Origin: a bacterium
Lineage (GTDB): Bacteria; JAJVIF01; JAGGVT01
Assembly: GCA_021157815.1 (NCBI GenBank)
Contig: JAGGVT010000096.1
Coordinates: 9,335 to 73,334 of the forward strand
Direction of reading: 5' to 3'
Length of the DNA: 64,000 bases
Part shown: piece after piece, positions 990 to 62,977 of the stretch
How the letters are laid out: each line of letters begins with the position of its first letter
How positions within the stretch are numbered: position 1 is the first letter of the stretch
Notes under the pieces: generated by a model
Databases searched by the model: none
Told to the model about the DNA's origin: nothing
The model's input: only the letters and a program-made list of their open reading frames with translations
Translations under genes and position numbers: made by a program

Positions 990-1178
990 TCGTGGCGACC
1001 TCGTCCCGGGATACTGCCATTATTCAATATTCATGCCATTTGACACCGGTAACTGCCAGTATTTACTTTGTCATGTTTGTTTTCTTTAATGTATAGTGCT
1101 ATAATTTTTGTGATATACAGGGGTGCGATAGGTCTTCTTGTTTGTCTCCAAATCTCTTAGGAATTAAGGAGTTAACGA

Positions 1179-4100
1179 TGCAAAACTCCATTCGTTTTTT
1201 TATAACAGCAATGGTCATTACAGCCCTGCTTTTTGGTTGTTCAAGCGGTGGGAAAAATCCGGTAATGCCGCGTGATCCCGGTGACGGCAATGCAACCCCG
1301 GAACTACCGCTAGTCAGTGACACCCTTGATGATGTATTGAATCCTGAAAGGAATTTTGATGATCTCCCTGCTGCGGAATTGGGTACAATTCGAAACACAT
1401 TCAACGCTCTAGGCACAATGGGCGCGTACGAGTTATCACTGGACGCTGATTCCATGTCCGCTGAGCTTATTTCAATTCGTACAGCATCGCTTGGTGAGAG
1501 CTTTCTTGTATCAGGCGCCAGTTTCTTCACAGTCCGACCATGCATCGACTGCCTGAGAATTGAATCAATCGAATTGACTCCTGAAAATACAATCCTTGTT
1601 CAATTCGCCGTCAGGCATCCTTTTGAAAAAGGCGTTAAGACCGAACCGGCATCAGCGCTGAATCGTCTTGATCTGGATGTTTTCGACCTGGCGATTGTCA
1701 TAGTGCCATACAGCGCGAGTTACAAATCCTTCCCTCTTCTTGATGTCAACGCATATTCGAAACTATGCCAGAATGTTGACGGTTTCACCAGGGAACTCGC
1801 GGATTTAACTCACAACCCGCATGCCTGCCCCTATTATCTTGTTGTTGACGAGTCTGGTTTGGATGAGCACGACTACAACAGATTCGAAATGGGCACAACG
1901 GATGTACTGGTTCCGGCTTATTTCGCGGCAAATGGCAAGTTCAGGATTTACCTGACAATGGGTTACGGCGCGAGCGCTGATTTCACAACACGGCTTAGCC
2001 CGGTCTATTACAACCCTGAGTTCAACCGCAAATCCGCGTGGAAAGTCGAAGTAATTCCGCCTGAGGGCGAAAACCCTCCCGCATTAGGCAACACGTGGAA
2101 TGAGATTGATACATCAACGACTTACGACGTTACAATAAAAGTATATGACTGGCAGCAAAACGCGACAGTGGCGACCAAATATCCTGATTATGAAAACCGT
2201 GACCATATCTATGCTTCATCAAAAGTCAAACGCGTTACAGCTGAAGTTATGAATATGACAAATGATTTGAGATGGGAGTACACACCGGTAAGCGGCGATG
2301 GTTCCCCTCTTGACCCGTTGATTTACAAAGTGAAAATAGCAAATGAAAAAGGGCTTTCAGCCGGAGAACATTTCGGGCTTGTCAAAGTAAGCGATGAACG
2401 GCATCCGGCGTTAGCCGCCGATGTCGGTACGATTGACTCTCTGGTGCACAGTCCTGATGGAGGTACGCTGTATTGGAACACGATACCTGAATTCGCGACA
2501 TATCAGATTTTCACAGCGACTGTTGTTCCCGGTGACGGCATCACTGTCATACATCCAAACGGCGGTGAAACATGGGGGATTAGCTCATCGCAGACAGTAA
2601 CATGGTCATCGACGGGTACAATCGCAAATGTGAACATCGAACTTTCTCTGGACAGCGGCAGCAATTTCACAGTTCCAATCGCCAATACCGTTCCGAATAC
2701 AGGTTCATTTATCTATAATCCTGTTGGGAATTTCCCCACTGAAAATGCGAGAGTAAGGATTTACAATTCGCTCGACGCTACCATCGTTGATGAATCGGAC
2801 AACGATTTCACAATAGAGGATATCCAGGGGCCAATTCAGGTAATCACGCCAAACGGCGGCGAAATCTGGGCTAAAAACACCCAGCAGAATATTACATGGA
2901 CTGCCGATGCTGATATTACCTATGTCAGGATTTATCTGTCCATGGATTCCGGCCTGAGTTACACAATTCCAATCACCGGTTCAACGCAAAACGATGGAAT
3001 CCATCAGTGGAACATACCGGAAGAAGCCATTGGAATTAATAACAGAATTAAAGTGCAAAAACTCACAGATCCGTTGATTTTCGATGAAAGCGACGCTGAT
3101 TTTCAGGTTGTTTGCCCGGTACTTAATCCGCCAGCGAGTGTTACAGCCTCCGATGGCACATATAATGACAAAGTCTCCGTTTACTGGGATGAAGTCGCAG
3201 GAGCATCCGGATATGATATCTACCGCGATAATGTACTGCAGGTTGCCAATCATCCTGCATTATCATGGGAGGATGTCGCTGTTGTTCCCGGAACCATTTA
3301 CAATTATCAGATTGCATCAATAAACTCCTGCGGAGCCGGCCTAAAGGGGCCCGCCGACCCGGGTGAACCCGGAAATGCGTGTGTTTTACCCACATCGCCA
3401 ACCGGAGTAAGCGCGACTGATGGCAATTTCCCCGATAAGGTAACAGTTACCTGGAACGCCGTGGCAGGTGTAACCGGATACAACATCTACCGCGATTCCA
3501 TTTTGCAGCAGGGCAATTACACATTGCTTACATGGGATGACACATCAGTAACTCCGGGAGTGATATACAACTACCAGGTTGAAGCGTTTAACGGTTGCGG
3601 AACAAGCGCCAAATCTCCCGCCGACCCGGGCGAGTCCGGACATGCGTGTGTTCTGCCGGATTTCCCAACCGGTGTGGACGCGACTGATGACGCTTTTCCC
3701 GACAGGGTTACCGTTTCATGGAACGTTGTGATAGGCGCGACCGGTTACGATATCTACCGCGACAGCGGACTTGTGCAGGATGATTTCGTTGGATTAACAT
3801 GGGATGACATGACTGTAGTTCCGGGAACAGTTTATTACTACCAGGTTGAAGCTGTGAATACCTGCGGTAACGGGGCAATTGCTCCACCTGATCCCGGCGA
3901 ACCCGGAAACGCGTGCGTTATGCCATTACCGCCAACCGGAGTAAGCGCGACTGACGGTAATTTCCCGGACAAGGTAACTGTTTCATGGAATGCTGCAGTC
4001 GGCGCAACCGGATACAATATATACCGCGATTCTGTTGTGCAGCTGGCAAACCATCCCGGCATAACATGGGATGACATGACAGTAACTCCGGGAGTGGTTT

Positions 4101-6268
4101 ACAACTACCAGGTTGAAACAGTTAACGGCTGCGGAACAAGCGCCCTGGCTCCCGTTGCCCCCGGTGAACCCGGCAATGCGTGCGTTCTCCCTGTCGCACC
4201 GGCGTGGATTACAGCATCGGATGGCACTTTCACAGACAGAATTCAAATCGACTGGGCGCTTGTTGCGGGAGCGACAGGATATAATATCTATAGGGATTTG
4301 AATCCGGTGCCTGTCGCAACGAATGTAGCCGCTCCAACATGGGATGATTCCGCTGTAAACATCTGTGAAAATCACGATTATGAGGCTTCCGCCGTTTCAG
4401 CATGCGGCGAGGGGCCCAAATCCGCCAGCGACACGGGTTATTCAGAGGAATTCCCTGCCGCTCCGACAGGTGTGAATGCAACCGATGACGCTTTTCCTGA
4501 CAAAGTTACCGTCTCATGGAACGCGGTAACTGGAGCGACAAGTTACGACATTTACCGCGATACAATACTTGTTCAGGATGATTTTGCGGGTTTGACATGG
4601 GATGACACGACTGTAACTCCGGGAACTATTTATAATTACCAGGTTGAAGCGGTCAACGCCTGCGGCAATGGGCCTATTGCGCCGGGAGCGCCGGGCGAAC
4701 CCGGCAACGCTTGTGTTTTACCAACAGACCCAACTGGAGTCGATGCGACTGACGGCACTTTCCCGGACAAGGTAACAGTATCATGGAACGCCGTTGGGGG
4801 AGCGACTGGATATAACATCTATAGGGATAGCGGACTGGTGCAGGCTAATCACCCCGGTATTACATGGGATGACACGACAGCAGTTCCTCCTGTTGTTTAC
4901 AACTACCAGGTTGAAGCGATAAACGGCTGCGGTGTCAGCAATAAAGCTCCTGCCGACCCGGGTGAACCCGGCAATGCATGCGAACTTCCGGATACTCCAA
5001 CCGGACTTGCAGCATCAGACGGTACTCACACTGACAGAGTTCAGCTCAGTTGGACCGCCGCTGCTGGCGCGCTGTCTTACGACATCATCCGAAATTCAGG
5101 TTTCCTGATTAATGTACCGGGAATAACCCATGACGACATGACCGCCACGGCGGGAGTGATTTACACGTACGAGGTTGAAGCGGTAAACGCATGCGGCAAC
5201 AGCCCGGCTTCAGCAGCGGATACCGGTTACGCTTTCGCTTGCGCGGCTGATACAAACGATACATGTGGAACAGCTGATCAAATGTTTATGAACAATTTCG
5301 TAACGGGACACTCCGTATCAGGATGCGTTGACATGATTGATGAGGACTGGTTTTATGTGTATGCTCCTCCAAATGGAATTACAGCGGCAAGTACAATAGA
5401 CATCACAATGCCATCCGGCACGCTGGATATTGAAGTTTATGGAATCGACCCGGGCGGAACATGCCCCGGAGCGCTGATTACATCGCAAACCAACATTGGA
5501 ACAACAACAGTTAATGTTCCAGCAAGTTCGTTAAGCCTTCTCTACATTAAACTGATAGGCAACTCCGGAGAGGTCAGTTACACAATGGATTTGGATCTTG
5601 CCCCATGGATAACAAATATGCCTGTTCAGGTGTGTGTCGCGACCGATGACGGCACACCCGGCGGCAACTGGCCATACGACGGCACGAATTACCTTGATCT
5701 TGCACGACTTAACCAGATGATAACATGGGCTAATAATTTCTGGCATCAATATGGTTATAACCTCAATTGGGATGGCTCCACTGTAACAATCATGGATTGG
5801 ATCTATTACAATCTGGATAATGGCGCGGAAGTCAACGCAATGCACACCGCTTATCATACTAACAATCTGCTAACTCTCTACTGGGTCAACCAGCTTGATC
5901 CACCGCATAATACCGCGTACTGCAGGTGTTATACTCCTGAATCAGCGCATAATGTAAATAATGTCTTCACCGCCTACAGTCCGAATGTGTGGACATGGGA
6001 ATCGGTTGTTGAACATGAGAACGGTCATGCGATGGCTTATTATTTCGATGAATATCTATATAATGCCGGCGGATGCGCCTGCGGAGACAATGGCTGTCTC
6101 GGCTATGTTCCGTGGCTCTACTGGTGCGATAATGGCTGTTACAACGGCAACCTGATGTATTACCATCAGATGGGCTGGACATGGGATTTGTTTAACCTTG
6201 TTAACGGCCAATGGCAGCAGATAAATGAATTTAACTTTAACAATCCAACCAATTATCCGTGGTTCTGA
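1179..6268 (+). CDS. Giant surface lipoprotein: family N-terminal module, 2 beta-sandwich repeats, 8 tandem Fn3-like repeats, PPC domain and C-terminal HEXXH-containing region
   Basis: AGGAG RBS then ATG at 1179. Signal peptide ending in lipobox LLFGCSSGG. N-terminal motifs RPCIDC, RHPFEKG, NRLDLDVFDL, EFNRKSAWKVEV, YDWQQN are shared with paralogs. Repeats with GYNIYRD/YNYQVEA/NGCG occur 8 times. DEDWFYVY...LDIEVYG looks like a pre-peptidase C-terminal (PPC) domain. HENGH is present near the C-terminus. Confidence 0.9.
3110..5230 (+). repeat. Coding tandem repeat, about 270-285 bp period x8 (Fn3-like units), high DNA identity between units
   Basis: Repeated DNA blocks such as ccaaccggagtaagcgcgactga..ggatacaa(c/t)at(c/a)taccgcgat recur at about 3400, 3660, 3940, 4470 and 4740. 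The protein shows 8 units ending in Y(D/N)IYRD. Confidence 0.8.
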
Positions 6269-8907: not shown

Positions 8908-9093
8908 GATTATCTCCTTCCAGTGATGTTGATCAAAGCAAGTTTATGTTACCACCGGAGGTTGTTATATTCCAGTTATCGCTCACTACCCAAAATCCGC
9001 AATAGGATATTTTTGTAACACCTGCAGCTCGCAGGTTGTGTGGAAAACGCTCGTTTTTCCCGTTAACATTGAATTCACCAATTGGGTGATAAA

Positions 9094-9173
9094 TTGTCAT
9101 TCTGAACTTGATTCAGAATCCATATCTTTTTCGCTTGTCAAGATGGATTCCGGGTCAAGCCCGGAATAACAAC
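9094..9173. repeat. Pair of inverted REP-like hairpin elements (same family as the array at 26081-26394)
   Basis: The two units are ttgtcattctgaaCTTGAttcagaatccat and, inverted, gttgttattccgggCTTGAcccggaatccatc. They share the GTCATTC..CTTGA..GAATCCAT frame with different but self-complementary stems. Confidence 0.6.
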
Positions 9174-9307
9174 GAGTTCAATCGCGGATTTAGGGTATTC
9201 ACTTACGATTCATGTCTGATAGATACCAATAAGCCGGTATGTTCTTTATTAATCAGTAATACGGTAATAGGTCTCTAATTTAACCGGACAGCAGTGACAT
9301 TATATAA

Positions 9308-12159: not shown

Positions 12160-12210
12160 GTTTTTTTCTAAGAGACTGTTGCCAACAAGATATTTCTATT
12201 GGAATCCGTA

Positions 12211-12320
12211 AAAAAGGGGACAGTCCAGAAAAACTTCCAGTATGATGATTTCAATAAACATTGTTCTAAATCCCAGTGTTTATCGTATTTATAAACGTTG
12301 TGGGACAATCCCCTTTTTTA
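12211..12320. mobile_element. MITE-like element, copy 1 (TIR AAAAGGGGACAGTCC)
   Basis: aaaaaggggacagtcc ... tgggacaatcccctttttt terminal inverted repeats flank about 80 bp. Homologous copies lie at 41644-41756 and 43066-43201. Confidence 0.5.
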
Positions 12321-12376
12321 CTCAATTTATTAGATTTAGTTTTTATCATTTAGTTTGTTATTTTACAACACCTTCT

Positions 12377-39454: not shown

Positions 39455-40039
39455 TCAATTCAAATTCGTCAAATCATCAATAGTCGCTGTGACCAGCCAG
39501 TTATCCCAGTCGGATGGCACATAATTGCCTAATGACATCCAGTCATCCCAGTCAGATGGCTCATAATCGCCAAGAGGATCTATAATTTCCGATATTTTCT
39601 CAAGCCATTCGCTGTCAGAGCTGTCATGGGCGCGCCTGATTGCGGGTATTCCAATTTTTGGAGCACTCATCCAGTCATCCCAGTCGGATGGTTCGTAATC
39701 GGTTGCGGTTCTCGGCTGTATTTCGTATCCCATCCAGTCATCCCAGTCGCTTGGCTCCCAATAAATATCAAAAGCCGCCAGTGCATAACTTGCAAAATAT
39801 CCAAACTGCGCCGGATTAATCAACTCGATTGTTGGAACGTCAGTTGGAATCCTTTCCGGATTTGGATAATCCGCTCCCGCCAGAACAAGCGCGAGTTGGA
39901 ATGTTTTTGCCTCAGGGTTGAATTCGGATGTTATCCTGTCAGGGGTAACCGGCTGGTTGCTGCAACCGTATAGTGCCAATAGTAACACTGCAACGATGAT
40001 TAGTTTGTATTTTGTCATTGTTCTCTCCCAAGCATTCAT
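39455..40039 (-). CDS. Lipoprotein with five-fold YEPSDWDDWM repeat
   Basis: Lipobox LYGCSNQ; repeats WEPSDWDDWM, DYEPSDWDDWM (x3), VPSDWDNWL. Periodic DNA repeats at 39470-39770. Confidence 0.7.
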   Translation of the reverse strand: MNAWERTMTKYKLIIVAVLLLALYGCSNQPVTPDRITSEFNPEAKTFQLALVLAGADYPNPERIPTDVPTIELINPAQFGYFASYALAAFDIYWEPSDWDDWMGYEIQPRTATDYEPSDWDDWMSAPKIGIPAIRRAHDSSDSEWLEKISEIIDPLGDYEPSDWDDWMSLGNYVPSDWDNWLVTATIDDLTNLN

Positions 40040-41603: not shown

Positions 41604-41643
41604 GGGTCTTCAATAAATCGTGTGGGTTGAATCTGGATTGAGT

Positions 41644-41756
41644 AAAAAAAGGGGAATGTCCCAACCAAGTGAATAAACACCGTATAAATAAGGGGTTACA
41701 GCATAGTATGTTGATAACATCAGTTTTGAAGTCTCATGTGGACTGTCCCCTTTTTA
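41644..41756. mobile_element. MITE-like element, copy 2 (inverted orientation)
   Basis: aaaaaaaggggaatgtccca ... gtggactgtcccctttttac. Confidence 0.5.
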
Positions 41757-41819
41757 CTACCGTCATAGAGCATTTAATGTTTCGTCTACTTTCGTTCAAA
41801 TTTAACCGGACAGTCGTGT

Positions 41820-43061
41820 TTACTTATACAAATTCGCTGCGACTTTCCTCACGCCGGATATTACATCCGTGATTTCCTGATCGCCGAAAGTCGGAGAGAG
41901 CGCGATATAAACCAGACGTCCAGCGATATCCTCCGTTTTCGGGCACATTCCCAGATGATATTTTACATCGCCTTTGTAGTATGGGCATGTAAACGGGCAG
42001 CCCTCCGGCGTGGCTGTGCTCATGTTTAAAACCTGTGGCCATGTCTGGTATATTGCGCCGCCGTACATTTTACTTGAATCGATATTCTCAGCGTTTAGAG
42101 CCTTAACAAACCTTGACGCCAGCTCAGCGGATTCCATATAGAAAATCACACTTGTTCCGATATCCTCCGCGCCATCGGTAACACGCCTGAAAATCAACCC
42201 CTTGATATCTCCTATTCCCTTTAGTATTTCCTCTTTCGCTTTTTTCATAGATGCGATAATGCTGTCGAGTTTTTTAATCTGCACGACTCCCACCGCGCCT
42301 GTAAATTCACTCATCCTGTGATTCTCGCCCATAAACGGCACTCCGCCTGTGAATTCGCGAAGGTTGCCGTGGTCGTGAAATCGGACAGCACGATGAAACA
42401 GGTCGGTGTCATCTGTGATTATAATTCCACCTTCTCCTGTCGAGATTAATTTATTCATCTGTAAACTGAAAACGCCCATTTTGCCCAGCGTTCCGACTTG
42501 TTGCCCCTTGTAATGCGCTCCGAACGACTGCGCGCAGTCCTCTAATACAGCGATATCGTTCTGCTTCGCGATTAGGAAAATGGAATCCATATCGCAAGCA
42601 ACACCCTGAAGATGAACGAGCATTATCACTTTTGTTCGAGGAGTGATTTTCGTTTTGAGATCATCCACATCGATATTTAACGTATCATCGACCTCAACGA
42701 AAACCGGGATCGCTTTCGCCGCGACAACAGCGCTCGCGCAGGCTATGAAAGTATATGCCGGAACGATTACTTCATCGCCGGGAGATACTCCGAGCGCGAC
42801 AAGCGCCACTTTCAATGCGGCAGTAGCGGATGTTACCCCCAGTGCGTGTTTTGTTCCTAAATATTCCTGAAGAGAGTTTTCAAATTCAGAAACCTTGTTC
42901 AGCATGTCGGGCCCGTAATATCTGAACGGGGATTTATGCTCGATAACCTCTATTAACGCCTGTTTCTCCTCATCGCCCATAACAAGCGCGCCCGGATACG
43001 GTGGTGGCAGCGGTTCGTTGCGAACAGGCTTTCCGCCATCTATTGCAAGTTTATCTGTCAT
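41820..43061 (-). CDS. DegT/DnrJ/EryC1/StrS-family PLP-dependent sugar aminotransferase
   Basis: HALGVTSATAALKVAL, DEVIVPAYTFIACASAV, VLEDCAQSFGA, SLQMNKLISTGEGG. Confidence 0.9.
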   Translation of the reverse strand: MTDKLAIDGGKPVRNEPLPPPYPGALVMGDEEKQALIEVIEHKSPFRYYGPDMLNKVSEFENSLQEYLGTKHALGVTSATAALKVALVALGVSPGDEVIVPAYTFIACASAVVAAKAIPVFVEVDDTLNIDVDDLKTKITPRTKVIMLVHLQGVACDMDSIFLIAKQNDIAVLEDCAQSFGAHYKGQQVGTLGKMGVFSLQMNKLISTGEGGIIITDDTDLFHRAVRFHDHGNLREFTGGVPFMGENHRMSEFTGAVGVVQIKKLDSIIASMKKAKEEILKGIGDIKGLIFRRVTDGAEDIGTSVIFYMESAELASRFVKALNAENIDSSKMYGGAIYQTWPQVLNMSTATPEGCPFTCPYYKGDVKYHLGMCPKTEDIAGRLVYIALSPTFGDQEITDVISGVRKVAANLYK

Positions 43062-43065
43062 TTTT

Positions 43066-43201
43066 TAGTCAACACCTCGATATCGCAAAAATGGGGACAG
43101 TCCACAACAGGCTTCAAATCTGACATTATCAATAGACATTACTCATAACACCAGCATTTATTGTATTTATTAACGTTGTTGGGACAGTCCCCATTTTTGC
43201 T
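43066..43201. mobile_element. MITE-like element, copy 3, flanked by 18-bp direct duplication AAGTTTATCTGTCATTTT
   Basis: TIRs aaaaatggggacagtcc / gggacagtccccattttt. The direct repeat at 43048-43065 and 43202-43219 includes the start codon of 41820..43061. Confidence 0.55.
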
Positions 43202-43217
43202 AAGTTTATCTGTCATT

Positions 43218-44069
43218 TTAGTTTTTCACATCAATACCGAACAGTTTTGCCGTGTTTAAACCAAGAATCTTTTCTTTGTCAGATTCCGAAATATCAGCAT
43301 AAACAATTTTCCCCACCTGCGGAACAGGCGATATAAACGGCACATCGGAGCCGTAGAGAATCCGTTCAGCACCGACCTCGCGAACCATCATCTCGATTAC
43401 ATCGGGATAAAGCCGCGATGAAGCCGTATCGAGATAAACATTCGGATGCTTTTTCGCGACCTCGATTGCCTCAAAAACGCCGTCATATTCCCCGCCGGTG
43501 TGCCCAAGAATGATAATCGCATCCGGATAATTCTCGGCAACCTTGTTAAAAAGCGATGGGAGGCAGTAATCGCAAATCGGGTCGTAATACCTCATGCTGT
43601 TCCATGTGTGTATTAAAACAGGCGCTTTGTGTTTCGATGAAAACTCCCAAACCGGATTGTAACGCGCATCATCACCGGCAACCTGATCGCAATAAGGATG
43701 GATTTTAATCCCCTTGAATCCGTGCTCATCGAAACAGCGATTGAGTTCGTCATCGAGGATATCAGCGTAATTCGCATTAACTCTGGCGTATCCGACAAAC
43801 CTGTCGGGATATGATTTGACCGCCCCGGCGACAATATCATTGCCAAACGGAAGCCCGTTGCTGAACGAGCTGATAGCAACCTTGTTAATTCCGATTCTAT
43901 CCAGTCCGGCGACTATTGCACCTGCATCATCACCGCCGGGGATATAGAATCCATGGTCAGGCCCAAAATGTCCATGGCAGTCGAAGATGAAATAGTCATC
44001 TAAAGGTTTGCCATCGTTTGTTGTTTTTGTGAAGTAGTCCATTGAGTTATCCTTTTTAAATATTACCAT
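43218..44069 (-). CDS. amidohydrolase_2 (PF04909-like) metal-dependent TIM-barrel hydrolase
   Basis: FDCHGHFGP near the N-terminus, ILGHTGG, DTAS; lactonase/decarboxylase-type family. Confidence 0.7.
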   Translation of the reverse strand: MVIFKKDNSMDYFTKTTNDGKPLDDYFIFDCHGHFGPDHGFYIPGGDDAGAIVAGLDRIGINKVAISSFSNGLPFGNDIVAGAVKSYPDRFVGYARVNANYADILDDELNRCFDEHGFKGIKIHPYCDQVAGDDARYNPVWEFSSKHKAPVLIHTWNSMRYYDPICDYCLPSLFNKVAENYPDAIIILGHTGGEYDGVFEAIEVAKKHPNVYLDTASSRLYPDVIEMMVREVGAERILYGSDVPFISPVPQVGKIVYADISESDKEKILGLNTAKLFGIDVKN

Positions 44070-44093: not shown

Positions 44094-46670
44094 TTAATCA
44101 ATTACAACGTACCCATCCTCGAATGAATATCCAAACTCCCTGTTACTGAATATTACCACCGTTACGCCGGGTGCAAGTATTCTCGCGCCGGATATATCCG
44201 ATTCTGTTCCTATCTCGAGAAGCAGATTGTTATGTGAAATCTCAATTGCTTCTATTGTTTCAAGCGATGAGAAAATCAACATGCCGTTGTATTCCAGGTG
44301 CGATGCGTTAATCAGAAGGACATCGAAATCGGGATTGTTTGCACGGACAACATGCGCCAAATCACCCTGGAATTTGTATTTCCCAAACGTGGCCATCTTA
44401 TTGGAGTTGCCCGTTTCGAGAAACACATCCGTTCTGTCAGGCAGTTCGATTTCGTAGCCATAGTTACGCCTGTGTGCCCTATCAATCCAGTCAGTTTCAA
44501 GCGTTTTGATTTCAATATCTGGAGCGTCTTTTCCCTCGTACGGATACAGCAAAACCTGGTATTGAACAAACGGCATCCGCGCCTGATGCAGTGAGATATA
44601 CGGCGCGTCATCCTTAACGCCATCAGCCGGTGTCACCATAGGCCCGGTTTTTTCATGGATCTCAACCTCATCCGCATTAAGCGGAATAAGCGCAAGATTG
44701 GCATCATCATTGGAAGTGTCGATGCGTTTTGTTTTCTTATCAATCTTAAGTTCAGTCGGCTGGAAATGCGCAAGCCAGTCGAATGTATGATATCCGCTGG
44801 TCTGGAAACTCGCTTGATAGTACGCCGGTCCCGGCAGGAAATCGGTTATTATCCAATAGCCGGGTTTGACAAAAATCGCACGTCTATTGTGAAGCACGCC
44901 AATCCAGCGGTAGCCATCGCTCCAAGCATCCGTGAAATCGAATCTCTCGCCAGTCCACCATTGCTCGACACGGTTGTTAGTGCATTTTCGCTGGCTTCTG
45001 GAATCGACCCAAACTGTATTATGCGCGATTGTTTGCTTGTACCATCGCTTGTTTATATCCGCTTCATAAGGCCCGGTACGGCCGCATTCCGTACAAATCG
45101 GTTTGCCAAACGCGTGGATATTAAAGTTGCCGAAATCAGGATGCGAATGCCACGCCTCATCCCAGCCGAAATCAAGGAACATATACGATGAATTTTTATC
45201 CCATGAATTGCGCATCACAACCCAGTCAGAATCGGGAAGATGAATTGATTTATATGGCGGGATCTGCGCCTTGGTTTTATTGTAGGCGTCAAGCGCTTGT
45301 GCGGTATTCTCGCACTGATCATTTGCTATCCTTTCAACATCATCCGGGTACCACTCAGAAAATTCTTTCAAGATTGGATTCGCAAATTCAAGCGCGCCTT
45401 CGATTATCGTGCCCTTGATTAGATAACCGTCCGGACCAATTCCGCCATCGCCGACAGGAACACCATTGCCTGCAGGCGGCATTATCTTGACCATGGATAA
45501 ATACATCGATTCCCATTTTCTATAACAATCCTCCGGTATCTCTCTTCCCGTTTTGCGAATGATATTTACAGTCCTGCGATACTGGTCAATAACACCGGTC
45601 GCATAGTTGACCGAATTCTCGATATGAGTGCCGTCATCGTAGGTATCGGTAATCATGTGCTCCTTGAAAAGTTCCCATGAAGGCTCAATCCAATTTTCTG
45701 AATCGTTGAACTCCGGGAAATACGCTCCGATTTTAATCAGCGCCTCGCACTGGCATGTCTGCCAGTTGCCCGGCATAAAGACATCGTTGCACTTTTCCAG
45801 AAATTGCGCATGTTCAAGAATCGATTTGTAGAAATTAATATTTCTTTCCTTGTCGAGATTCAATTCACCTGTTTTTGCAAGCCATCGTTCTGTGTCGCAC
45901 ATATGAATTGCGGTACCGCCTGCGCCAAGCGTTCGCCAGTATGGCAGCCAGACAAAACCGATATACGCTTTCGGCCGTTGAGCGGGCGGACGGTACGTTT
46001 CATACCAGTGAGAGAACATCTCAAGCCACGCATCGGCGTATTTCCTGTCATTTGTGTGTATTGCCGCGCGTTCGAGAACACGCATCAACCCAAAAAGTGA
46101 ATACCTTTTTCCGGGAACGCATGCTGGGAAATCGGGATCTTTGATAATCTCGTCAGCGTCTATTACCGCGGCTTCACCCGCTTCTTTTGTAATCGGACAA
46201 AGCTTCAACTGATTCGGCCTTGGGCGTTCAGACTGATATATCAAATATTCATCCCGCGCTTTTGTGAAATCACGCGAATCAACCGCTGCCTTCACTTTCT
46301 CAAGTCCCTGATGGTTCAAATCCACGGTGGAAAAAAAATCTTTATCCGTCATTATTGGACAGGTGGGCGTGTAGTCGTATTCCGCTTTGTATCGCTCGAC
46401 AAAAGTATTTGTATAGCGGTATTTGCTAAGGAGTTTGACATCCAAATTGACATCCGAATCAAATTCAATTGACGGGTCATCCACGTACGTTATCTCCGAT
46501 GGCTCATACGGAGAAATTGCCTCCGGTGGAACAGGCACCTGCGCCATGTCAACATACGCCATCGTGTTGGGAACTTCATTCTCCCGTGAAGATTTATCAT
46601 TATCGGAATCCACTGGGCAACCACAAAAAATGAAGGATGCCATTATTAGTAGAAATGCAAATCGTGCCAT
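44094..46670 (-). CDS. heparinase II/III-like polysaccharide lyase family protein (secreted), paralog 1
   Basis: Signal/lipobox FIFCGC. WDEAWHSHPDFGNFNIHAFG matches the H.H.D...F Hepar_II_III motif. Large alpha-rich N-domain with NWQT. Start reassigned to ATG at 46670 (AGGAG RBS), 11 bp after the upstream gene stop. Confidence 0.75.
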   Translation of the reverse strand: MARFAFLLIMASFIFCGCPVDSDNDKSSRENEVPNTMAYVDMAQVPVPPEAISPYEPSEITYVDDPSIEFDSDVNLDVKLLSKYRYTNTFVERYKAEYDYTPTCPIMTDKDFFSTVDLNHQGLEKVKAAVDSRDFTKARDEYLIYQSERPRPNQLKLCPITKEAGEAAVIDADEIIKDPDFPACVPGKRYSLFGLMRVLERAAIHTNDRKYADAWLEMFSHWYETYRPPAQRPKAYIGFVWLPYWRTLGAGGTAIHMCDTERWLAKTGELNLDKERNINFYKSILEHAQFLEKCNDVFMPGNWQTCQCEALIKIGAYFPEFNDSENWIEPSWELFKEHMITDTYDDGTHIENSVNYATGVIDQYRRTVNIIRKTGREIPEDCYRKWESMYLSMVKIMPPAGNGVPVGDGGIGPDGYLIKGTIIEGALEFANPILKEFSEWYPDDVERIANDQCENTAQALDAYNKTKAQIPPYKSIHLPDSDWVVMRNSWDKNSSYMFLDFGWDEAWHSHPDFGNFNIHAFGKPICTECGRTGPYEADINKRWYKQTIAHNTVWVDSRSQRKCTNNRVEQWWTGERFDFTDAWSDGYRWIGVLHNRRAIFVKPGYWIITDFLPGPAYYQASFQTSGYHTFDWLAHFQPTELKIDKKTKRIDTSNDDANLALIPLNADEVEIHEKTGPMVTPADGVKDDAPYISLHQARMPFVQYQVLLYPYEGKDAPDIEIKTLETDWIDRAHRRNYGYEIELPDRTDVFLETGNSNKMATFGKYKFQGDLAHVVRANNPDFDVLLINASHLEYNGMLIFSSLETIEAIEISHNNLLLEIGTESDISGARILAPGVTVVIFSNREFGYSFEDGYVVID

Positions 46671-46680
46671 TGTTTTTCTC

Positions 46681-49233
46681 CTAGTTAATGATAATGAACC
46701 CATCTTGCATGTTAACTTTTTCCTGTTCGCCATTGATTATAACCTTGTTCACACTACCAGCAACTATCTTGACACCTGATAAATCGGATTCGCTTGTTAT
46801 GCTCATTTTGGCTCCATTAACACTTATTTCAAGCGCTTCAATTGCTGCAGGAGCTGAGAATATAAGGATATCATCAATCATTAGATAATCGGCATTAAGT
46901 AGAAGAAAGACTGTTTCGGATTTTTCAATGTCACTAAGAAGCGCGATATCGCCGCGGAATTCATAATCGCCGAATTTAACTTTCTTTGTTGCATCGCCGG
47001 ATTCCATGAAAATATCTTTTCGGTTTGAGAATGATATTTCATAACCAACATTCTGCCTGCTGACACGGTCAGCGAAATCCGTTTCAAGCGGCGTGATTTC
47101 AATTTCAGGCGCGACTTTTCCCTCGTAAGGAACAAGCAAAACCTGATACTGCTTGAACGCCAATCCCTCCTGATGCAGGGAAATGTAAGGAGTTTCTACC
47201 ATTCCATCCGTTGTTGACATCGGGCCTTTGCTTTTATTAACGACAATGTCCTCATGGTTAAGGGGGACAAGCGCGATATTGGCGTCAGGATTCAGCGTAT
47301 CAATACGCTTTGTTTTACTGTCAATATTAAGTTGAGTCGGCTGGAAATGCGCAAGCCAGTCGAATTCATGATATCCGCTGGTCTGGAAACTGGTTCCGTA
47401 ATAGGACGGTCCCGGCAGGAAATCCGTGATAATCCAATAGTCGGGTTTTGAAAAAATTACTCGACGGTTATGCTGAACGCCAATCCAGCGGTAGCCATCG
47501 CTCCAAGCGTCAGTGTAATCAAAATCATCCGATGTCCACCACTGCTTCAGAGTGTTAGTCGTGCATTTGCGCATGCTTCGCGAATCAATCATGACAGTAT
47601 TATGCGCGATAGTCTGCTTGTACCATCTTTTTGATACGTCAGCCTCGTAAGAACCAGTCCTGCCACATTCAGTGCAGATTGGTTTTCCGAATGCCCAAAT
47701 ATCGAACGAGCCAAAATCGGGATGCGAATGCCACGCCTCATCCCAGCCGAAATCGAAAAACATATACGGCGATTTCTCATCCCACGATTCACGCATAACT
47801 GACCAGCCTGTGTCGGGCAGGAGAACAGAGGTAAATGACGGCTCTTCTGATTTGATTTTGTTGTATGCCGCAAGCACTTCATCAGTATTGTCAAACTGCT
47901 CGTTCGCTGTTTTGATAACATCATCGGGATATCGCTCGGCGAAATATTTCATTGCAGGGTCATTAAATTCAAGTGCGCCTTTTATAATCGCGCGTTTGGT
48001 GAAACTGCCATCCGCTCCGATACCGCTATCACCGCATGGAACATAATTTCCCGTCGGCGGAACTATCTTAACAGCCCATAAATACATGGTTTTCCACTTT
48101 CGGTAGAATTCATCGGGGATAAACATCCCGAGTTTTCGTACGAGCCTGACTACAGTGCGGTATTCATCCATAACACCGGTAGCGTAACCGACTGAGTTTT
48201 CGCAGTGAGTGCCGTCGTTATAGGTTTCCTTTACCATGTGCTGTTGCGACATTTTCCACGCGTGTTCGCACCAGAATTGCGATTTTTTAAACGATGGGAA
48301 ATAACCGCCGATTTTCATAATCCCCTCGCACTGGGCGGTCTGCCAGTTGCTGGGCATGAATACATCATTGCATATATAGAGATATTCAGCATGTTCCAGA
48401 ACTGATTTATACAAATTGAATATTTTATCTTTGCACAATTTAGGGTTATCAATCTGCGAAAGCCATCGTTCAGTTTCAGGCAGGCTTCTAGCCGGGCCTG
48501 AGGCACCAAGTGTACGCCAATATGGCATCCAGATAAAGGAGATATACGTTTTGGGCCGCTGAGCTGGCGGGCGATATGTTTCATACCAGTGGTTGTACAT
48601 TTCAAGCCACGCTTCAGCATATTTAATATCATCCGTGTGGATATACGCCCGTTCGAGATAGTACATCATTCCCCATAATGAGAAGTACATCCCCGGCCTG
48701 CAATCCGGGAATTTGGGGTCTTTCATAATCTCATCCGCTTTCTCTACAGCAGCCTCGCCTGCTTCTTTTGTAACAACCCGTTCTTTAAGCTGGTATTTTT
48801 TATCGCGCTTCGCCTGATATGACAAATACTCATCCCGCGCCTTTTGGAAATCACCAGACGTAACCGCCGCCTTAACTTTCTCAAGGCCTGGATAGTCCAG
48901 ATTAACCGCCTCGAAAAATTCCCTGTCCGACATCTCCGGCTTGGTGGGAGTATAGCCGTATTTCGCTTTCCACTTCGCCACAAATTCGTTGGTGTAGCGA
49001 TACTTGCTGAAAAGTTTTACATCCATGTTCCAGTCGGAATCGAGTTCAATCAACGGCTCATCCACGTAGGTGATTTCCGTTGGTTCAAATGGGGACAATG
49101 CCTCCGGTGGAACAGCTACAATCTGCCCGCCATCGGCATAATCCATCGTGTAGTGAACATCCTTTTCCCTTGATAGTGAAAATCCGAAGAAAATAATCGA
49201 TGCAATAAAAAGGGCTATAGCTGTTCGAGTCAT
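46681..49233 (-). CDS. heparinase II/III-like polysaccharide lyase family protein (secreted), paralog 2
   Basis: Signal peptide; WDEAWHSHPDFGSFDIWAFG; about 60% identical to paralog 1 along the full length. Confidence 0.75.
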   Translation of the reverse strand: MTRTAIALFIASIIFFGFSLSREKDVHYTMDYADGGQIVAVPPEALSPFEPTEITYVDEPLIELDSDWNMDVKLFSKYRYTNEFVAKWKAKYGYTPTKPEMSDREFFEAVNLDYPGLEKVKAAVTSGDFQKARDEYLSYQAKRDKKYQLKERVVTKEAGEAAVEKADEIMKDPKFPDCRPGMYFSLWGMMYYLERAYIHTDDIKYAEAWLEMYNHWYETYRPPAQRPKTYISFIWMPYWRTLGASGPARSLPETERWLSQIDNPKLCKDKIFNLYKSVLEHAEYLYICNDVFMPSNWQTAQCEGIMKIGGYFPSFKKSQFWCEHAWKMSQQHMVKETYNDGTHCENSVGYATGVMDEYRTVVRLVRKLGMFIPDEFYRKWKTMYLWAVKIVPPTGNYVPCGDSGIGADGSFTKRAIIKGALEFNDPAMKYFAERYPDDVIKTANEQFDNTDEVLAAYNKIKSEEPSFTSVLLPDTGWSVMRESWDEKSPYMFFDFGWDEAWHSHPDFGSFDIWAFGKPICTECGRTGSYEADVSKRWYKQTIAHNTVMIDSRSMRKCTTNTLKQWWTSDDFDYTDAWSDGYRWIGVQHNRRVIFSKPDYWIITDFLPGPSYYGTSFQTSGYHEFDWLAHFQPTQLNIDSKTKRIDTLNPDANIALVPLNHEDIVVNKSKGPMSTTDGMVETPYISLHQEGLAFKQYQVLLVPYEGKVAPEIEITPLETDFADRVSRQNVGYEISFSNRKDIFMESGDATKKVKFGDYEFRGDIALLSDIEKSETVFLLLNADYLMIDDILIFSAPAAIEALEISVNGAKMSITSESDLSGVKIVAGSVNKVIINGEQEKVNMQDGFIIIN

Positions 49234-49294: not shown

Positions 49295-50032
49295 TTATGA
49301 AACCCCTAACAGTTTCAACAAATTGCCGCCGGCTATCATCGACTTCTCCTCATCAGATATCCCGGCGTATTGCACCGCCATCACTGATGGCTCAGGATTG
49401 AAAAGCGGAATTGACGTTCCGAACAGAAGTCGCCTTGCTGAGAATTTCGCGCAGACATCCTCTATTCCACCATGCAATTGGAACATTGATGTATCAAGAT
49501 ACAGATTCGATGTCTCAGATAAAAGCGCGTAAATCAGGCGGCTGAATCTAAACGGCGCTCCCGTTAAAACAACAGCAAGTCCTGTATGTTGTTTGCACAA
49601 TCCATATATCTGATCGACGCTTGTTTCGTTATAATCGATAAACAGCGGGATGGAACGCTCCTGCAGAACACTTAGCAGAGTACCGCAACTCCATTCCGAC
49701 AACGACCAGTTATGAGTTTTTGGAAAAACACGCACGGTGCGAACGCCATTTTCCAGCATTGATTCAACAATCTCCACCGGTGGAGGCATTTCACCTGTGT
49801 GATGCGGCATTACAGCCCAGCATGGATACAGGTTGCCATAATCCGCGACCTCGTCAAGAATCCAATTGTTGCCGTAAGTCGGGCTGTATTCCTTCGATGA
49901 AATATGATAAACAAGTGCACCATCAATACCGGCTTGTTTCATCACTTTTGCCAGTTCTTTTGCGTTGTCGATATAACCCGGCAGTGGTACGGATAATTTG
50001 CCTATACAGCAATTGGCATCGATAAATTGCAT
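49295..50032 (-). CDS. amidohydrolase_2-family TIM-barrel hydrolase
   Basis: MQFIDANCCIGK N-terminus, pattern and size like neighbouring PF04909-type proteins. Confidence 0.65.
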   Translation of the reverse strand: MQFIDANCCIGKLSVPLPGYIDNAKELAKVMKQAGIDGALVYHISSKEYSPTYGNNWILDEVADYGNLYPCWAVMPHHTGEMPPPVEIVESMLENGVRTVRVFPKTHNWSLSEWSCGTLLSVLQERSIPLFIDYNETSVDQIYGLCKQHTGLAVVLTGAPFRFSRLIYALLSETSNLYLDTSMFQLHGGIEDVCAKFSARRLLFGTSIPLFNPEPSVMAVQYAGISDEEKSMIAGGNLLKLLGVS

Positions 50033-53524: not shown

Positions 53525-53620
53525 TGTGTTATTCCTTTTTGTTTATTTTGCATGTAATCCGGGAGCTCTTCCCAAGGACCCCGGCGAAGGGACGCCGGGT
53601 TACAATTCACTAATTTTCCA

Positions 53621-53736
53621 ACTTACTAACCTGCCAACTTACTAACCTGCTAACCTGCTAACTTGCTAACCTACTAACCTGCTAACTTACTAACCTGCTA
53701 ACTTACTAACCTACTAACCTGCTAACTTACTAACCA
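53621..53736. repeat. 8-bp tandem repeat (CTAACYTR)n, about 14 units, beginning at the stop codon of 53730..54350
   Basis: Same unit as 23803-23906; preceded by ctaaTTTTCCAAC and a G/C hairpin (53560-53615). Confidence 0.85.
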
Positions 53737-57907: not shown

Positions 57908-58016
57908 AACCTGCTAACCTGCTAACTTACTAACCTGCTAACTTACTAACCTGCTAACTTACTAACTTACTAACCTGCTAACTTACTAACTTACTAACCT
58001 GCTAACTTATTAACCT
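57908..58016. repeat. 8-bp tandem repeat (CTAACYTR)n, about 13 units, overlapping the stop codon of 58010..60520
   Basis: Same unit and same TTTTCCAAC junction as the arrays at 23.8 kb and 53.6 kb. Confidence 0.85.
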
Positions 58017-60520
58017 GTCACAAGATAACTGCCATCGGGAAGTGTGATTGTCATTTTTCCCTTGAAATCACCATTGACCGATGCGCCGTTGTTTGTAAAC
58101 TGAATCTCGACCCAGTCCATTTCATTCGAGCAATACGCAATAACCTTTCCATCGCGTTTAAGGCATGTTCCGCCGACAAGTAGAATCGAACTAACAACTC
58201 CGTCTTTTTCTCTGATTAACGCCATTTCACCATCGAAAGAGAAATCGCCGTATTTGCGAAACGCGCTTTTCTCATCAACAACGTAATAATAATCCGCCTT
58301 GAGGGATTCGAGGTAGTAATCGATTCCATCAGGCGATGTGATTTTCAAACCCTTGCATCGCCAGGCATCATCGCCCATATCGAGAGTTTCGACTTTGATA
58401 TCCGGGGCGACTGTTCCCTTGTATGGATAAATAACAACCTCGTAATCGACCGGCAAATCGCCCTCTCTTTGATAGCCGATATACGGCGCATCATCCACTT
58501 CACCATCCGGAGTAACCATCCAGCCCGTGGATTGATTAACAATGAGAGTTTCAGGATTTAACGGCACCACCAGAACATTCACATCGGGATTGTTTGTGCG
58601 AATCGCTTTCGATTTCTCATCAATTGCCAGTTCAGTCGGCTGGAAATGTGCCAGCCATTCACATTCGTGATAACCGCTGGTCTGACACATTTTTTCAGTC
58701 AGGTTGTCAGTGAGAATCCAATAGTTGGGTTTAACAAACGTAATTTTTCTACGGCTATACGCGCCAAGATATTTGTAACCATCATGGATTGCGTTTGCAT
58801 AATCGGCTGTCGATGATGTAACCCATGTATCGCAGATTCCGGATGTAATCTTGCGCTGGCTCATCCCGTTGATTGTTACAAGGTTATGCGAGATTGTTTC
58901 CTTATACCACAATTTGCACCTGTCAGTCTGATATCCGCCAGCAAGCCCGCAGTCCGTAATAAGCGGCTTGCCATAAGCGAAAATGCTGAATCCAAGGCCG
59001 TCGCGATGGCAGTGCCACGGCTCGTTTGAGCCATAATCGAAAAGCAGATAACGGGCATCCCTGCTCCAGTCGTCGCGCATTATCGCCCAGCCTGTGTCAG
59101 GCAGATTCACGGATGTATAATCCGGTTCCTTCGGTACGATTGCTTTTAATTCAGCGATAACCTCATCAGCGCCATCACCGAAAAGATCTTTTGCCCTTTC
59201 TCTTAATTTATCAGGATAATCCTTCACAAAATATTTGAACTCAGGGCATGGGAATAAAAGAGCGCCATCAATAAGATATGGAACTGCGAAATTCTCCGCT
59301 CCCATAGCACTGTCGCCGACAGGCGCCAGATTAAGAATCGGCGAATATACTTTTATTGTCCATTCCTGCGCATGTTTAAGTTTCGGCTCAAGCCAGTCGG
59401 GTTCCTCCAAACCAGCTATACGCACCAGTTTAAGAATCTTTCGAAAAAACTTTATAACAGCATTGTTATAACCTGCCGCTCTCTCGAAATAACCGCCATC
59501 GGGCATCACACCAAGATCCACGTGTTTTAGAAGGTAATTCCACGCGAAATCAATCCATTGCCGGGACTCCTTGAATTCAGGATAATTTATCCCGGCCTCA
59601 AGAAGGTTAAGCATCTGAAGAAGTTGAATATTACCGGCGCGGTATCCGGGATTGACCGACATTAAAAATTGCGCATGCTCAACAACTGATTTATACAGTA
59701 CAATCCTTTCATCAACCGGAATGTCATTGTATTCAATTCCAGTCAGAATATCATTGAAACATGAGAAAGTGTGAATTCTGTAACCCGCCAGATGGGAATC
59801 CCATGGATTGTTAATAAACGATGGTGAAAGCCAGATTTTCGGAGCGCCCTCAGGCGGTCGGACTGTCTCATACCAGAATGAAAACATATCCATCAAACCA
59901 TGGAGATATTTCATATCGCCTGTGTAACGATAAGCATAGTAAAGATGTGATAGCCAGTTCCACCACGCATCCTTTGAGCCATTGCCAAGTTTTTCCCTGT
60001 CCCACGGATGATTCGGGAAATCCGGACTATTGAGAAGCTCATCGGACCTTTCAACATAAATATTCTTTCTCGATGGATTAAGCGTGCCAGGGTCGATATG
60101 GACAATTTCAGGACGATTCTTAAAATAATCCGCAAGTTCAAATTTCGCCTTTTTGTAATCCCCCGCCTCTACTGCTGCCTTCACTGATTCAAGACCGTCA
60201 TGGCTAAGGTCAATCACCGAAAACAACTCCTCATCGGCCATGACATCCGCGACTGGATGGTAGTTGTATTTTACAAGCCATCTCTCAAGATACAGGTCAG
60301 ACAGTTTGATTTCTGAAAATGTCTTGTAGTGCAGATTGAGTTCAGCTTCCAGCTTAACTGACGGCTCATCCACAACGGTGATTGATTCATCGGATTGAGC
60401 ATACCCGGTTGTGAACATTGAAACTACACAAGCTACCAGAACAAGCATCCATGATTTCCACATATCTCCACACCTCGTATTTTGATGGCACAGTAAAATA
60501 AATAAACCCTGAAAAAACAT
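58010..60520 (-). CDS. heparinase II/III-like polysaccharide lyase family protein (secreted), paralog 3
   Basis: Signal peptide MWKSWMLVLVACVVSMFTTGYA (start probably internal, about 60463). H.H.D...F motif as SNEPWHCHRDGLGFSIFAYG. Collinear with paralogs 1 and 2. Confidence 0.75.
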   Translation of the reverse strand: MFFQGLFILLCHQNTRCGDMWKSWMLVLVACVVSMFTTGYAQSDESITVVDEPSVKLEAELNLHYKTFSEIKLSDLYLERWLVKYNYHPVADVMADEELFSVIDLSHDGLESVKAAVEAGDYKKAKFELADYFKNRPEIVHIDPGTLNPSRKNIYVERSDELLNSPDFPNHPWDREKLGNGSKDAWWNWLSHLYYAYRYTGDMKYLHGLMDMFSFWYETVRPPEGAPKIWLSPSFINNPWDSHLAGYRIHTFSCFNDILTGIEYNDIPVDERIVLYKSVVEHAQFLMSVNPGYRAGNIQLLQMLNLLEAGINYPEFKESRQWIDFAWNYLLKHVDLGVMPDGGYFERAAGYNNAVIKFFRKILKLVRIAGLEEPDWLEPKLKHAQEWTIKVYSPILNLAPVGDSAMGAENFAVPYLIDGALLFPCPEFKYFVKDYPDKLRERAKDLFGDGADEVIAELKAIVPKEPDYTSVNLPDTGWAIMRDDWSRDARYLLFDYGSNEPWHCHRDGLGFSIFAYGKPLITDCGLAGGYQTDRCKLWYKETISHNLVTINGMSQRKITSGICDTWVTSSTADYANAIHDGYKYLGAYSRRKITFVKPNYWILTDNLTEKMCQTSGYHECEWLAHFQPTELAIDEKSKAIRTNNPDVNVLVVPLNPETLIVNQSTGWMVTPDGEVDDAPYIGYQREGDLPVDYEVVIYPYKGTVAPDIKVETLDMGDDAWRCKGLKITSPDGIDYYLESLKADYYYVVDEKSAFRKYGDFSFDGEMALIREKDGVVSSILLVGGTCLKRDGKVIAYCSNEMDWVEIQFTNNGASVNGDFKGKMTITLPDGSYLVTG

Positions 60521-61212: not shown

Positions 61213-61247
61213 CATTTTTTCGATTTCATAAACACAAATAAACGACG

Positions 61248-61492
61248 GAGGGTTTACGAGCCTGTCGGGAAAGGCACCGCAAACAAGAAACCCCCACCCC
61301 AGCCCTCCCCAACCCGTTCGGCTACGCTCAGGGTCTTCGACGAGCGGGAAGGGAGAATGTTATCTTTTCCCTTCGCAAGTGTATAGACCGGGTATATCGT
61401 TTGCAAATGCAAAAACATTTCCCCCCGCTCGCGGGGGGATTAAGGGGGGGAGGAGATATAAAAACAACCTTTCCCGACAAGCTCCTACCCAC
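61248..61492. mobile_element. MITE-like element, copy B (inverted and diverged relative to 29084-29306)
   Basis: The reverse complement aligns along its length with copy A, including gtcgggaaagg ends and the ccccccgcgagcgggggg hairpin. Confidence 0.6.
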
Positions 61493-61604
61493 TCTGCTTT
61501 CTGATTACTTCTTTTGATTATGATAAAATTTCGCTGGTCTTAATGAGATGATTCAATGCTCATTTCTTTTTACGCATTTTTCCCGCTGACATAAATAACG
61601 GCAG

Positions 61605-62777: not shown

Positions 62778-62977
62778 TTTGACTTTCTCGATGGTTTTTG
62801 CTATATAACATATAACTTGTGGATGCAAGGGAAGATGGTTAAAGTCCATCGCGGTCCAGCCACTGTGTTGGGCACATTATTGAAGTCCAGATAATTGCCC
62901 TAAGCCAGAAAACCAATTCACAGGTTGAATGTACAGCTTCTTGGATTGGGCTTCGCATTCATTGGATATTCTCCTTT

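Follow-up and report, generated by a model that had tools for sequence, protein, structure and literature searches.

How can a small repeat enter a pair of genes that have no spacer between them and leave both genes intact? This question is raised by one site in a 64,000-nucleotide stretch of contig JAGGVT010000096.1 (the window, whose numbering is used throughout), which comes from an uncultured bacterium; the names of homologues point to Planctomycetota as the host. At this site a repeat of 116 nt, which we call the core, separates a gene for an Amidohydro_2-family protein from one for a DegT/DnrJ/EryC1-family aminotransferase (DegT), and the DegT start is found on both sides of it. The first-pass annotation regarded the repeat as one of three copies of an element resembling a miniature inverted-repeat transposable element (MITE), inserted with an 18-bp duplication. 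The analysis described here indicates that the insertion is genuine, that the duplicated segment is the entire stop/start junction of the two genes and that the 116-nt unit is the core of a family of larger, modular elements. All of the genes at the site are on the minus strand, with families assigned by Pfam, and its features are as follows.

41820–43061, minus strand: DegT/DnrJ/EryC1-family aminotransferase gene, 413 aa, intact (PF01041)
43047–43084, minus strand: DegT-proximal junction copy (D, 38 nt), with a putatively decayed amidohydrolase 3' end and the functional DegT start
43085–43200, plus strand: core of copy 3, 116 nt, with GCAAAAATGGGGACAGTCCACAAC at 43085–43108 and its complement ending at 43200
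43201: single extra base (plus-strand T) separating the core from the upstream junction copy; the same base is present in the copy at locus L142 (AGC...)
43202–43238, minus strand: upstream junction copy (U, 37 nt), with GIDVKN codons, TAA, a 1-nt spacer and orphan DegT codons 1–5 (ATG at 43214–43216)
43218–44069, minus strand: Amidohydro_2-family gene, 283 aa, intact (PF04909)

Evidence for an insertion

The amidohydrolase stop codon lies −4 to +2 nt from the DegT ATG, with nothing between them, in all six of the related loci. These are given here with the amino-acid identity of their DegT proteins to that of the window.

L006: 94%, empty site
L007: 86%, empty site
L008: 77%, empty site
L145: 77%, empty site
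L148: 76%, empty site
L147: 74%, empty site

Such close spacing suggests that in these relatives the two genes belong to one operon and are translationally coupled. The first-pass annotation had proposed comparison with related genomes as the test of its claim of an insertion, and the claim stands: the 18-nt segment that is repeated in the window is single in all six. Compared with L006, the closest relative, in which the empty junction reads ...GTTGAGGTGACGAAATAAAAATGACAGATAAACTTGCAATAG, the window has exactly 155 extra bases. They are made up of a single nucleotide, the 116-bp core and the gene junction in a second copy. To either side of the insert the window and L006 have a nucleotide identity of about 90%, without discontinuity. 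By this comparison the window carries a true 155-bp insertion.

A look-up of the exact DegT protein indicated six contigs that carry it, and five loci were returned. They derive from the metagenomes JGI 3300016457 and ENA ERZ23499350, lie on contigs of 16–32 kb and are 99.8–99.9% identical to the window. Repeats do break metagenome assemblies, and one contig (L039) terminates within a core, but the identical 155-bp structure lies well inside the contig in each of the five loci. The same filled allele is found in two independent metagenomes, and an assembly artefact at the repeat is therefore scarcely credible. These five are silent on the history of the insertion. A history could be proposed in which the common ancestor already carried the element, which was later deleted from the relatives precisely between the direct repeats; recombination between the 18-nt repeats would give a clean junction and leave no trace. 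However, all six relatives are empty, with DegT identities running from 94% to 74% and outgroups included, so that many independent exact losses would be required, and the sister assembly has at least 10 core copies elsewhere and none at the DegT junction. We consider this history very improbable.

The duplicated gene junction

The direct repeat itself is real. The sequence AAGTTTATCTGTCATTTT occurs exactly twice, at 43047–43064 (the left copy had earlier been placed one position off, at 43048–43065) and at 43202–43219; with up to three mismatches allowed, 0.17 matches are expected and no shuffled sequence contained two. As had been reported, the repeat holds the DegT start, reading on the minus strand AAA followed by the first five codons ATG ACA GAT AAA CTT (MTDKL). 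Two bases of the right-hand 18-mer fall in the amidohydrolase stop codon TAA (43218–43220), which lies inside the upstream junction copy. The bracketing of the element by the repeat is asymmetric: 1 nt separates the inverted repeat from the 18-mer on the right, and 20 nt from that on the left. The intervening 20 nt (43065–43084, sense strand GATATCGAGGTGTTGACTAA) appear to be a relic of the amidohydrolase 3' end, which makes the duplication not 18 bp but about 37–38 bp in length, and imperfect beyond the 18-mer.

The 20-nt stretch carries a Shine–Dalgarno-like GAGGTG (43073–43078) placed 11 nt before the DegT ATG, a distance also found in L006 and L007; the upstream junction copy has lost this motif and now reads GATGTG. 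Read in frame the stretch gives ...IEVLTKK, with a TGA that overlaps the ATG. The amidohydrolase tails with which it was compared end, before their stop codons, in GVEVTKK (L007), GVEVTK (L006) and GIEVMT (L145 and L147). Against the L145 tail (ATCGAGGTAATGACT) the stretch is identical at 13 of 15 positions, with a best local score of 11 (P = 0.001 against random 20-mers from the window, 0.003 against shuffles), a score that is reached by none of 251 upstream regions of long ATG-started open reading frames. This significance arose only after three more relatives were added; against the four junctions from the window upstream copy, L006, L007 and L008 the result was not significant (P 0.07–0.2). 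For the upstream copy, the 25 nt before the ATG match the L008 junction at 21 of 25 positions.

The stretch was found nowhere else in the window or in 144 fetched loci, and it is absent from all 13 of the other core copies. A paralogous 245-aa amidohydrolase was rejected as its source, its 3' end being unlike the stretch on inspection. An apparent likeness between the flanks of copies 1 and 3 is no more than chance would give in T-rich sequence (P 0.12).

On the sense strand the site is laid out as GGTATTGATGTGAAAAACTAAAATGACAGATAAACTT, A, the core, GATATCGAGGTGTTGACTAAAAAATGACAGATAAACTT and then GCAATAG..., with the junction copies of 37 and 38 nt abutting both core ends. The upstream copy keeps the last codons of the amidohydrolase and its stop, while the other keeps GAGGTG, the spacer and the DegT start and is no longer required to encode a tail. 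Both genes are intact because the junction is duplicated on either side of the core.

A modular repeat family

The other features of the family in the window are as follows.

12208–12321, plus strand: copy 1 of the core, in a 217-nt spacer between two minus-strand genes
41604–41818, minus strand: copy 2 composite, 215 bp, comprising an inverted type-B right arm, the core and a type-A right arm
41642–41757, minus strand: core of copy 2, within the 215-bp chimera

Allowing up to two mismatches, the motif AAAWGGGGACAGTCC has eight matches in the window where 0.18 would be expected, six of which are accounted for by both ends of three units of about 116 nt. The three copies align with a mean column identity of 76%. 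The core has terminal inverted repeats of about 24 nt, which can pair as single-stranded DNA or RNA, and an AT-rich interior of about 70 nt that is conserved in sequence and unpaired. In a consensus fold of 14 copies a terminal stem of 17 pairs is the only conserved pairing, with one compensatory change from A:T to T:A that is common to copy 3 and L142. The flanks of copy 1 hold only short arm remnants of larger elements (CCGT on the left and ACTCAAT on the right). The three-copy family of the first-pass annotation, multi-copy, non-coding and bounded by inverted repeats, is thus upheld, and its coordinates are close to the remeasured cores. The span then given for copy 3 (43066–43201) includes 20 nt foreign to the family, the inverted repeat of this copy reads AAATGGGGACAGTCC and not AAAAGGGG, and the 116-nt unit is not a complete MITE but the core shared by larger composites with differing outer arms.

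These composites are found in a sister genome. A pattern scan of species-representative genomes returned 10 core copies, all of them in CBDURE01 (SRR22302362_metabat2_46) from assembly ERZ25746724. The empty site L006 is from the same assembly and, we infer, the same organism. No core copy in CBDURE01 stands by itself. In six copies (type A) it lies inside elements of 189–192 bp with outer inverted repeats GGCGCTTCAATAWATTGTGTGGGTT (GGCGCTTCAATA...) and with 8-bp AT-rich target duplications that are perfect in three of the six (TATATTTT, AAAGATTT and ATTAATAT), match at 6–7 of 8 positions in two and are absent in one. These 8-bp footprints bear out the earlier doubt that 18 bp could be a classical target-site duplication. 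In the remaining four copies (type B) the core lies inside elements of about 300 bp with outer inverted repeats CACTACTGTCCGGTTAA. Type-B arms are also found around other central modules, at L140 4302–4608 and at 9000–9305 of the window. The latter, on the minus strand, has a type-B left arm (outer end CACTGCTGTCCGGTTAA, 9280–9296) joined to a different central module, which contains GGGCTTGACCCGGAAT, the unit of a 25-nt tandem array of 11.8 copies at 26082–26377.

On these sequences the family is modular, one core being nested in unrelated arms. It also has several attributes of MITEs. The elements are small and non-coding (a 116-bp core and composites of 189–215 bp, the only frame being the orphan one of 25 codons described below), they are dispersed within one genome (three copies in the 64-kb window and 10 on 10 contigs of the sister assembly), and they have terminal inverted repeats on the core, with separate outer inverted repeats on types A and B. 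By eye, no direct repeat was evident beside the core in the other 13 copies. The window and fetched loci yielded neither a long open reading frame flanked by the outer or core end motifs nor a partner transposase whose ends match. The core was not matched in an Rfam scan of the window at the gathering threshold, the sole match being a cobalamin riboswitch (RF00174) at 62804–62935 on the plus strand (34 bits against a gathering score of 31.5), and it had no match in plasmid, phage or viral-contig collections.

The 13-nt palindrome GGGGAC(A/T)GTCCCC at the core ends is much more widespread. Among the matches listed, it occurs in at least 120 metagenome stretches (L011–L130), mostly on GC-rich contigs, where it is arranged in tandem, in inverted pairs or in mixed clusters, with a wide variety of spacers. 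No further core copies from the species of the window came to light among these matches. A literature search for the core-end motif returned no description of it, only unrelated primer sequences. The palindrome may mark a large, undescribed repeat system with a protein partner.

Copy 2 gives a separate view of how these elements behave. Its type-B right arm (41758–41818, outer end CACGACTGTCCGGTTAA) begins 1 nt after the DegT stop, and the outer end of its type-A right arm (41604–41641) abuts the stop of a convergent 470-aa gene. In L006 (11246–14024) the same two points are 2.78 kb apart, and the interval holds a 337-aa open reading frame and a gene for a GFO_IDH_MocA-family oxidoreductase; an oxidoreductase of this family also follows DegT in L007 and L148. 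The simplest reading is that a type-B and a type-A element inserted at the two points and subsequently recombined through their shared core ends, deleting what lay between. Recombination between these elements would then already have remodelled this locus, at a cost of two genes.

Origin of copy 3

The reading that we favour, with roughly even confidence, is a single insertion of the bare 116-bp core at the amidohydrolase–DegT boundary, with the junction duplicated in the same event and the two junction copies decaying afterwards. The bare core of a composite MITE family would have landed exactly at a tightly packed, probably coupled gene boundary, and the junction would have been duplicated by a route other than the usual transposition with an 8-bp stagger. 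Candidate routes are fill-in of a break with overhangs of about 37 nt, or copy-in, for example by template switching or short-homology recombination. A duplication of about 37 bp would be non-canonical, because elements of the family leave 8-bp footprints at their outer ends. As the ancestral genes had no spacer, an insertion that left the junction single would have destroyed the stop, the ribosome-binding site or the start, and would not have survived; selection would account for the fact that so odd an event is the one observed. The two copies would then have decayed according to the task that remained to each, while the 18 nt encoding the DegT start stayed identical. The difference between the window and L006 at four-fold degenerate sites is 0.20–0.29, which would allow roughly 14–18% decay per junction copy since the split, and 3–4 changes in about 22 nt, a number compatible with that divergence, suffice to derive each junction copy from a plausible common ancestor.

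Several observations weigh against this. The upstream 18-mer, which is unconstrained, has no changes beside about seven substitutions and two indels in the adjoining 20 nt, a pattern only marginally compatible with simple drift (rough P about 0.05–0.1). The two 20-nt extensions are not significantly similar when compared directly (P 0.1–0.2), and the case for a relic rests on the match of each to natural tails. Among these tails, the upstream one shares its KN type with the distant L008, while L006 and L007, the nearest relatives, end in TK(K), which the downstream relic resembles; this pattern fits the import of a foreign junction better than drift. Finally, no transposase was identified in the window and fetched loci.

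It is accordingly possible, although we hold this only tentatively, that the two junction copies come from different lineages or alleles, the core having arrived with a piece of foreign junction and the repeat being a recombination scar. The foreign piece could have been joined to the resident junction through one crossover with a small circle, placed in the 18 nt that are identical, or through homology-facilitated illegitimate recombination following the uptake of DNA. The tails are what suggest this: the upstream GIDVKN tail has its 21 of 25 identities with the distant L008, while the body of the gene is 91% identical to L006, which ends in GVEVTK, and the downstream IEVLTKK relic resembles the L007 tail in addition to its 13 of 15 matches to L145. 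An identity of 18/18 beside one of about 60–70% would also suit a scar, and copy 2 indicates that recombination between elements has already reshaped the locus. In L142, the closest relative of copy 3, AATGACAGAT stands at an equal distance from the corresponding inverted-repeat end (anchored P 0.003), and the next 50 nt upstream of it align to the amidohydrolase 3' end of L007 (P 0.008–0.02), which suggests that the subfamily of copy 3 and L142 can carry junction DNA along. On the other hand, the L142 similarities are modest after multiple comparisons, the sequence to either side of the insert is evenly diverged from L006, with no foreign tract in the flanking genes, the 20 nt before the tail are identical to L006 at 20 of 20 positions and no donor allele was found. 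The tails are also short, evolve fast and are related by small indels, which makes them weak characters. Whether the copies decayed in place or came together as a scar, the event would be non-canonical, and in neither case is the repeat a classical target-site duplication. The explanation implied by the first-pass annotation, a transposase-made target-site duplication of 18 bp with the 20 nt belonging to the mobile element, has in its favour the exact 18-mer and the precedent of IS1549 and IS1634, which on insertion produce direct repeats of variable length, 8–514 bp against the usual 2–14 bp (PMC2266710). It is largely refuted by the match of the 20 nt to amidohydrolase 3' ends of relatives; their absence from the 13 other copies and from the rest of the window and the 144 loci, and the 8-bp duplications made at the outer ends of elements with the same core, also speak against it, and we judge it improbable.

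A broader proposal can also be made. The core might generally spread not by cut-and-paste but by copy-in, through template switching or short-homology recombination, co-copying tens of flanking bases and so leaving long and variable duplications; the L142 left arm would then be a transduced amidohydrolase–DegT junction, and such fragments would steer later insertions to homologous boundaries without harm to the genes. This is doubtful at present. The L142 element (1254–1449, the same as in L039 and L141; genome GCA_043815725.1) is enclosed by inverted repeats of 16 nt (GTGACCGYTGCAAAAG) and follows an unrelated 312-aa gene, and its left arm resembles the amidohydrolase 3' end and the DegT start, both genes being absent there. 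No empty site could be defined for this copy, as the next orthologue, L144, is not syntenic downstream.

The sequences that these readings lead one to look for are as follows.

Flank of a core copy at a donor locus: GCGATATCGAGGTGTTGACTAA
Uninterrupted junction expected under an allelic origin: ...GATATCGAGGTGTTGACTAAAAAATG
Junction query for an amidohydrolase ending in ...IEVLTKK and a stop: GATATCGAGGTGTTGACTAAAAAATGACAGATAAACTTGC

Some arrangements of the locus as a whole were also considered and rejected. Copies 2 and 3 on either side of DegT are inverted and their arms differ, which disposes of the reading of DegT as either an integron cassette bounded by attC sites or the cargo of a composite transposon. 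DegT and its neighbours are moreover equally diverged from L006, which also speaks against both readings. An inversion between copies 2 and 3 yields no sensible ancestor.

Comparison with known systems

Like bacterial MITEs, the core family is short, non-coding, multi-copy and intergenic with terminal inverted repeats, and the type-A elements share with them outer inverted repeats and 8-bp AT-rich target duplications. Unlike MITEs, the core is internal to elements with unrelated arms (types A and B and that of L142), and the core of copy 3 sits alone within a 37–38-bp junction duplication, of which 18 bp are exact, rather than a short target-site duplication of fixed length.

REPINs are extragenic units of about 100 nt, present in many copies, with two inverted ends that pair; they are mobilized by RAYT proteins, and their spacers pair with compensatory changes (PMC3116915). 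The core resembles them in its length of about 100 nt and its inverted, conserved ends that are able to pair, and its end motif GGGGAC(A/T)GTCCCC is itself a short palindrome. It differs in that only the 17-pair terminal stem is conserved among the 14 copies, with a single compensatory pair, and the 70-nt interior is unpaired. A head of the GT(A/G)G type is a feature of REP sequences, and the core is without one. IS1549 and IS1634 are autonomous and carry their own transposase; the core is comparable with them in outcome only, that is, in the long repeat, and nothing ties it to them.

ERIC (or IRU) sequences, the Correia elements of Neisseria and the BOX elements of pneumococci are inverted-repeat elements of about 100–150 nt. 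They are transcribed together with the genes on either side, fold into RNA hairpins and can change expression or the stability of the mRNA. BOX elements share their modularity with the core family, and Correia elements duplicate only TA. None of the three has any sequence relationship to the core, and we know of no ERIC/IRU, Correia or BOX element that duplicates a whole stop/start junction. Integron attC sites have outer core sites RYYYAAC ... GTTRRRY and follow each cassette gene in one orientation. The core ends are GCAAAAATGGGG.../...CCCCATTTTTGC and copies 2 and 3 around DegT are oppositely oriented, so that this identification was rejected.

In our view this is a previously undescribed modular MITE family, an ordinary kind of element and not a new kind of system. 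What is unusual is the footprint of copy 3, which by sequence comparison is a duplication of about 37 bp of a stop/start junction with both genes kept.

Hairpin and orphan reading frame

The sense-strand RNA of the element folds with −50.9 kcal/mol (z = −4.2), with a long stem formed by the two core ends and followed by AUUUUUG. A 24-bp stem and U-run between the genes probably weakens the expression of DegT or uncouples it from the upstream gene, as the hairpin and AUUUUUG should hinder read-through or ribosome coupling. It is conceivable that the element supplies or disrupts the DegT promoter, as the first-pass annotation had proposed. A crude scan of the element for sigma-70-type sites gave no promoter-like site, although the sigma-70 pattern may not be that of the host. 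The duplicated ATG is still 1 nt after the amidohydrolase stop and opens a short frame.

43139–43216, minus strand: orphan frame of 25 codons (MTDKLSKNGDCPNNVNKYNKCWCYE and a stop), running from the duplicated DegT ATG via the 5' arm of the hairpin into the core interior

This frame may be translated, in which case translation would melt the stem.

Neighbouring genes and other repeats

Further features of the window and of the related loci are given here for completeness.

44094–46733, minus strand: heparinase II/III-like gene, upstream of the Amidohydro_2 gene

This gene and the next (46681–49233, minus strand) are tandem heparinase II/III-like paralogues with a DNA identity of about 71%, and a third related gene lies at 58010–60520. 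A second, shorter Amidohydro_2 gene is found at 49295–50032. A 1708-aa open reading frame on the plus strand (1142–6268) contains 267-nt tandem repeats (3131–5203), and a 194-aa protein encoded on the minus strand (39455–40039) has the motif PSDWDDWM four times. In the relative L147 (3–794) the amidohydrolase upstream of DegT is called as two open reading frames (157 and 80 aa), which may reflect a frameshift or a pseudogene.

The window also holds repeats of other kinds. Tandem arrays of the octamer CTAACCTG / CTAACTTA immediately follow minus-strand genes at 23801–23907, 53620–53735 and 57908–58017, each array having about 13 copies, and arrays of the same octamer flank the ends of type-B elements in the sister genome (L135 and L139). 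Another inverted-repeat family, with arms of 144 and 68 nt, 85–87% complementarity and internal inverted repeats, occurs at 29081–29305 and 61243–61494, and in the sister genome at L140 7902–7997 with 86% identity. A repeat of about 200 nt at 23566–23765 is common to the sister genome at 84–85% identity, with two copies in one 8-kb locus (L131 513–711 and 6205–6385).

Implications

If the favoured reading is true, copy 3 would illustrate neatly, from nature, how a small repeat can enter a spacer-less gene pair with neither gene harmed, the insertion itself duplicating the stop codon, the ribosome-binding site and the start codon. A coupled pair would thereby have become two genes separated by a strong hairpin. 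The locus suggests that such elements remodel operons in uncultured Planctomycetota-like bacteria and that repeat families of this type can be modular.

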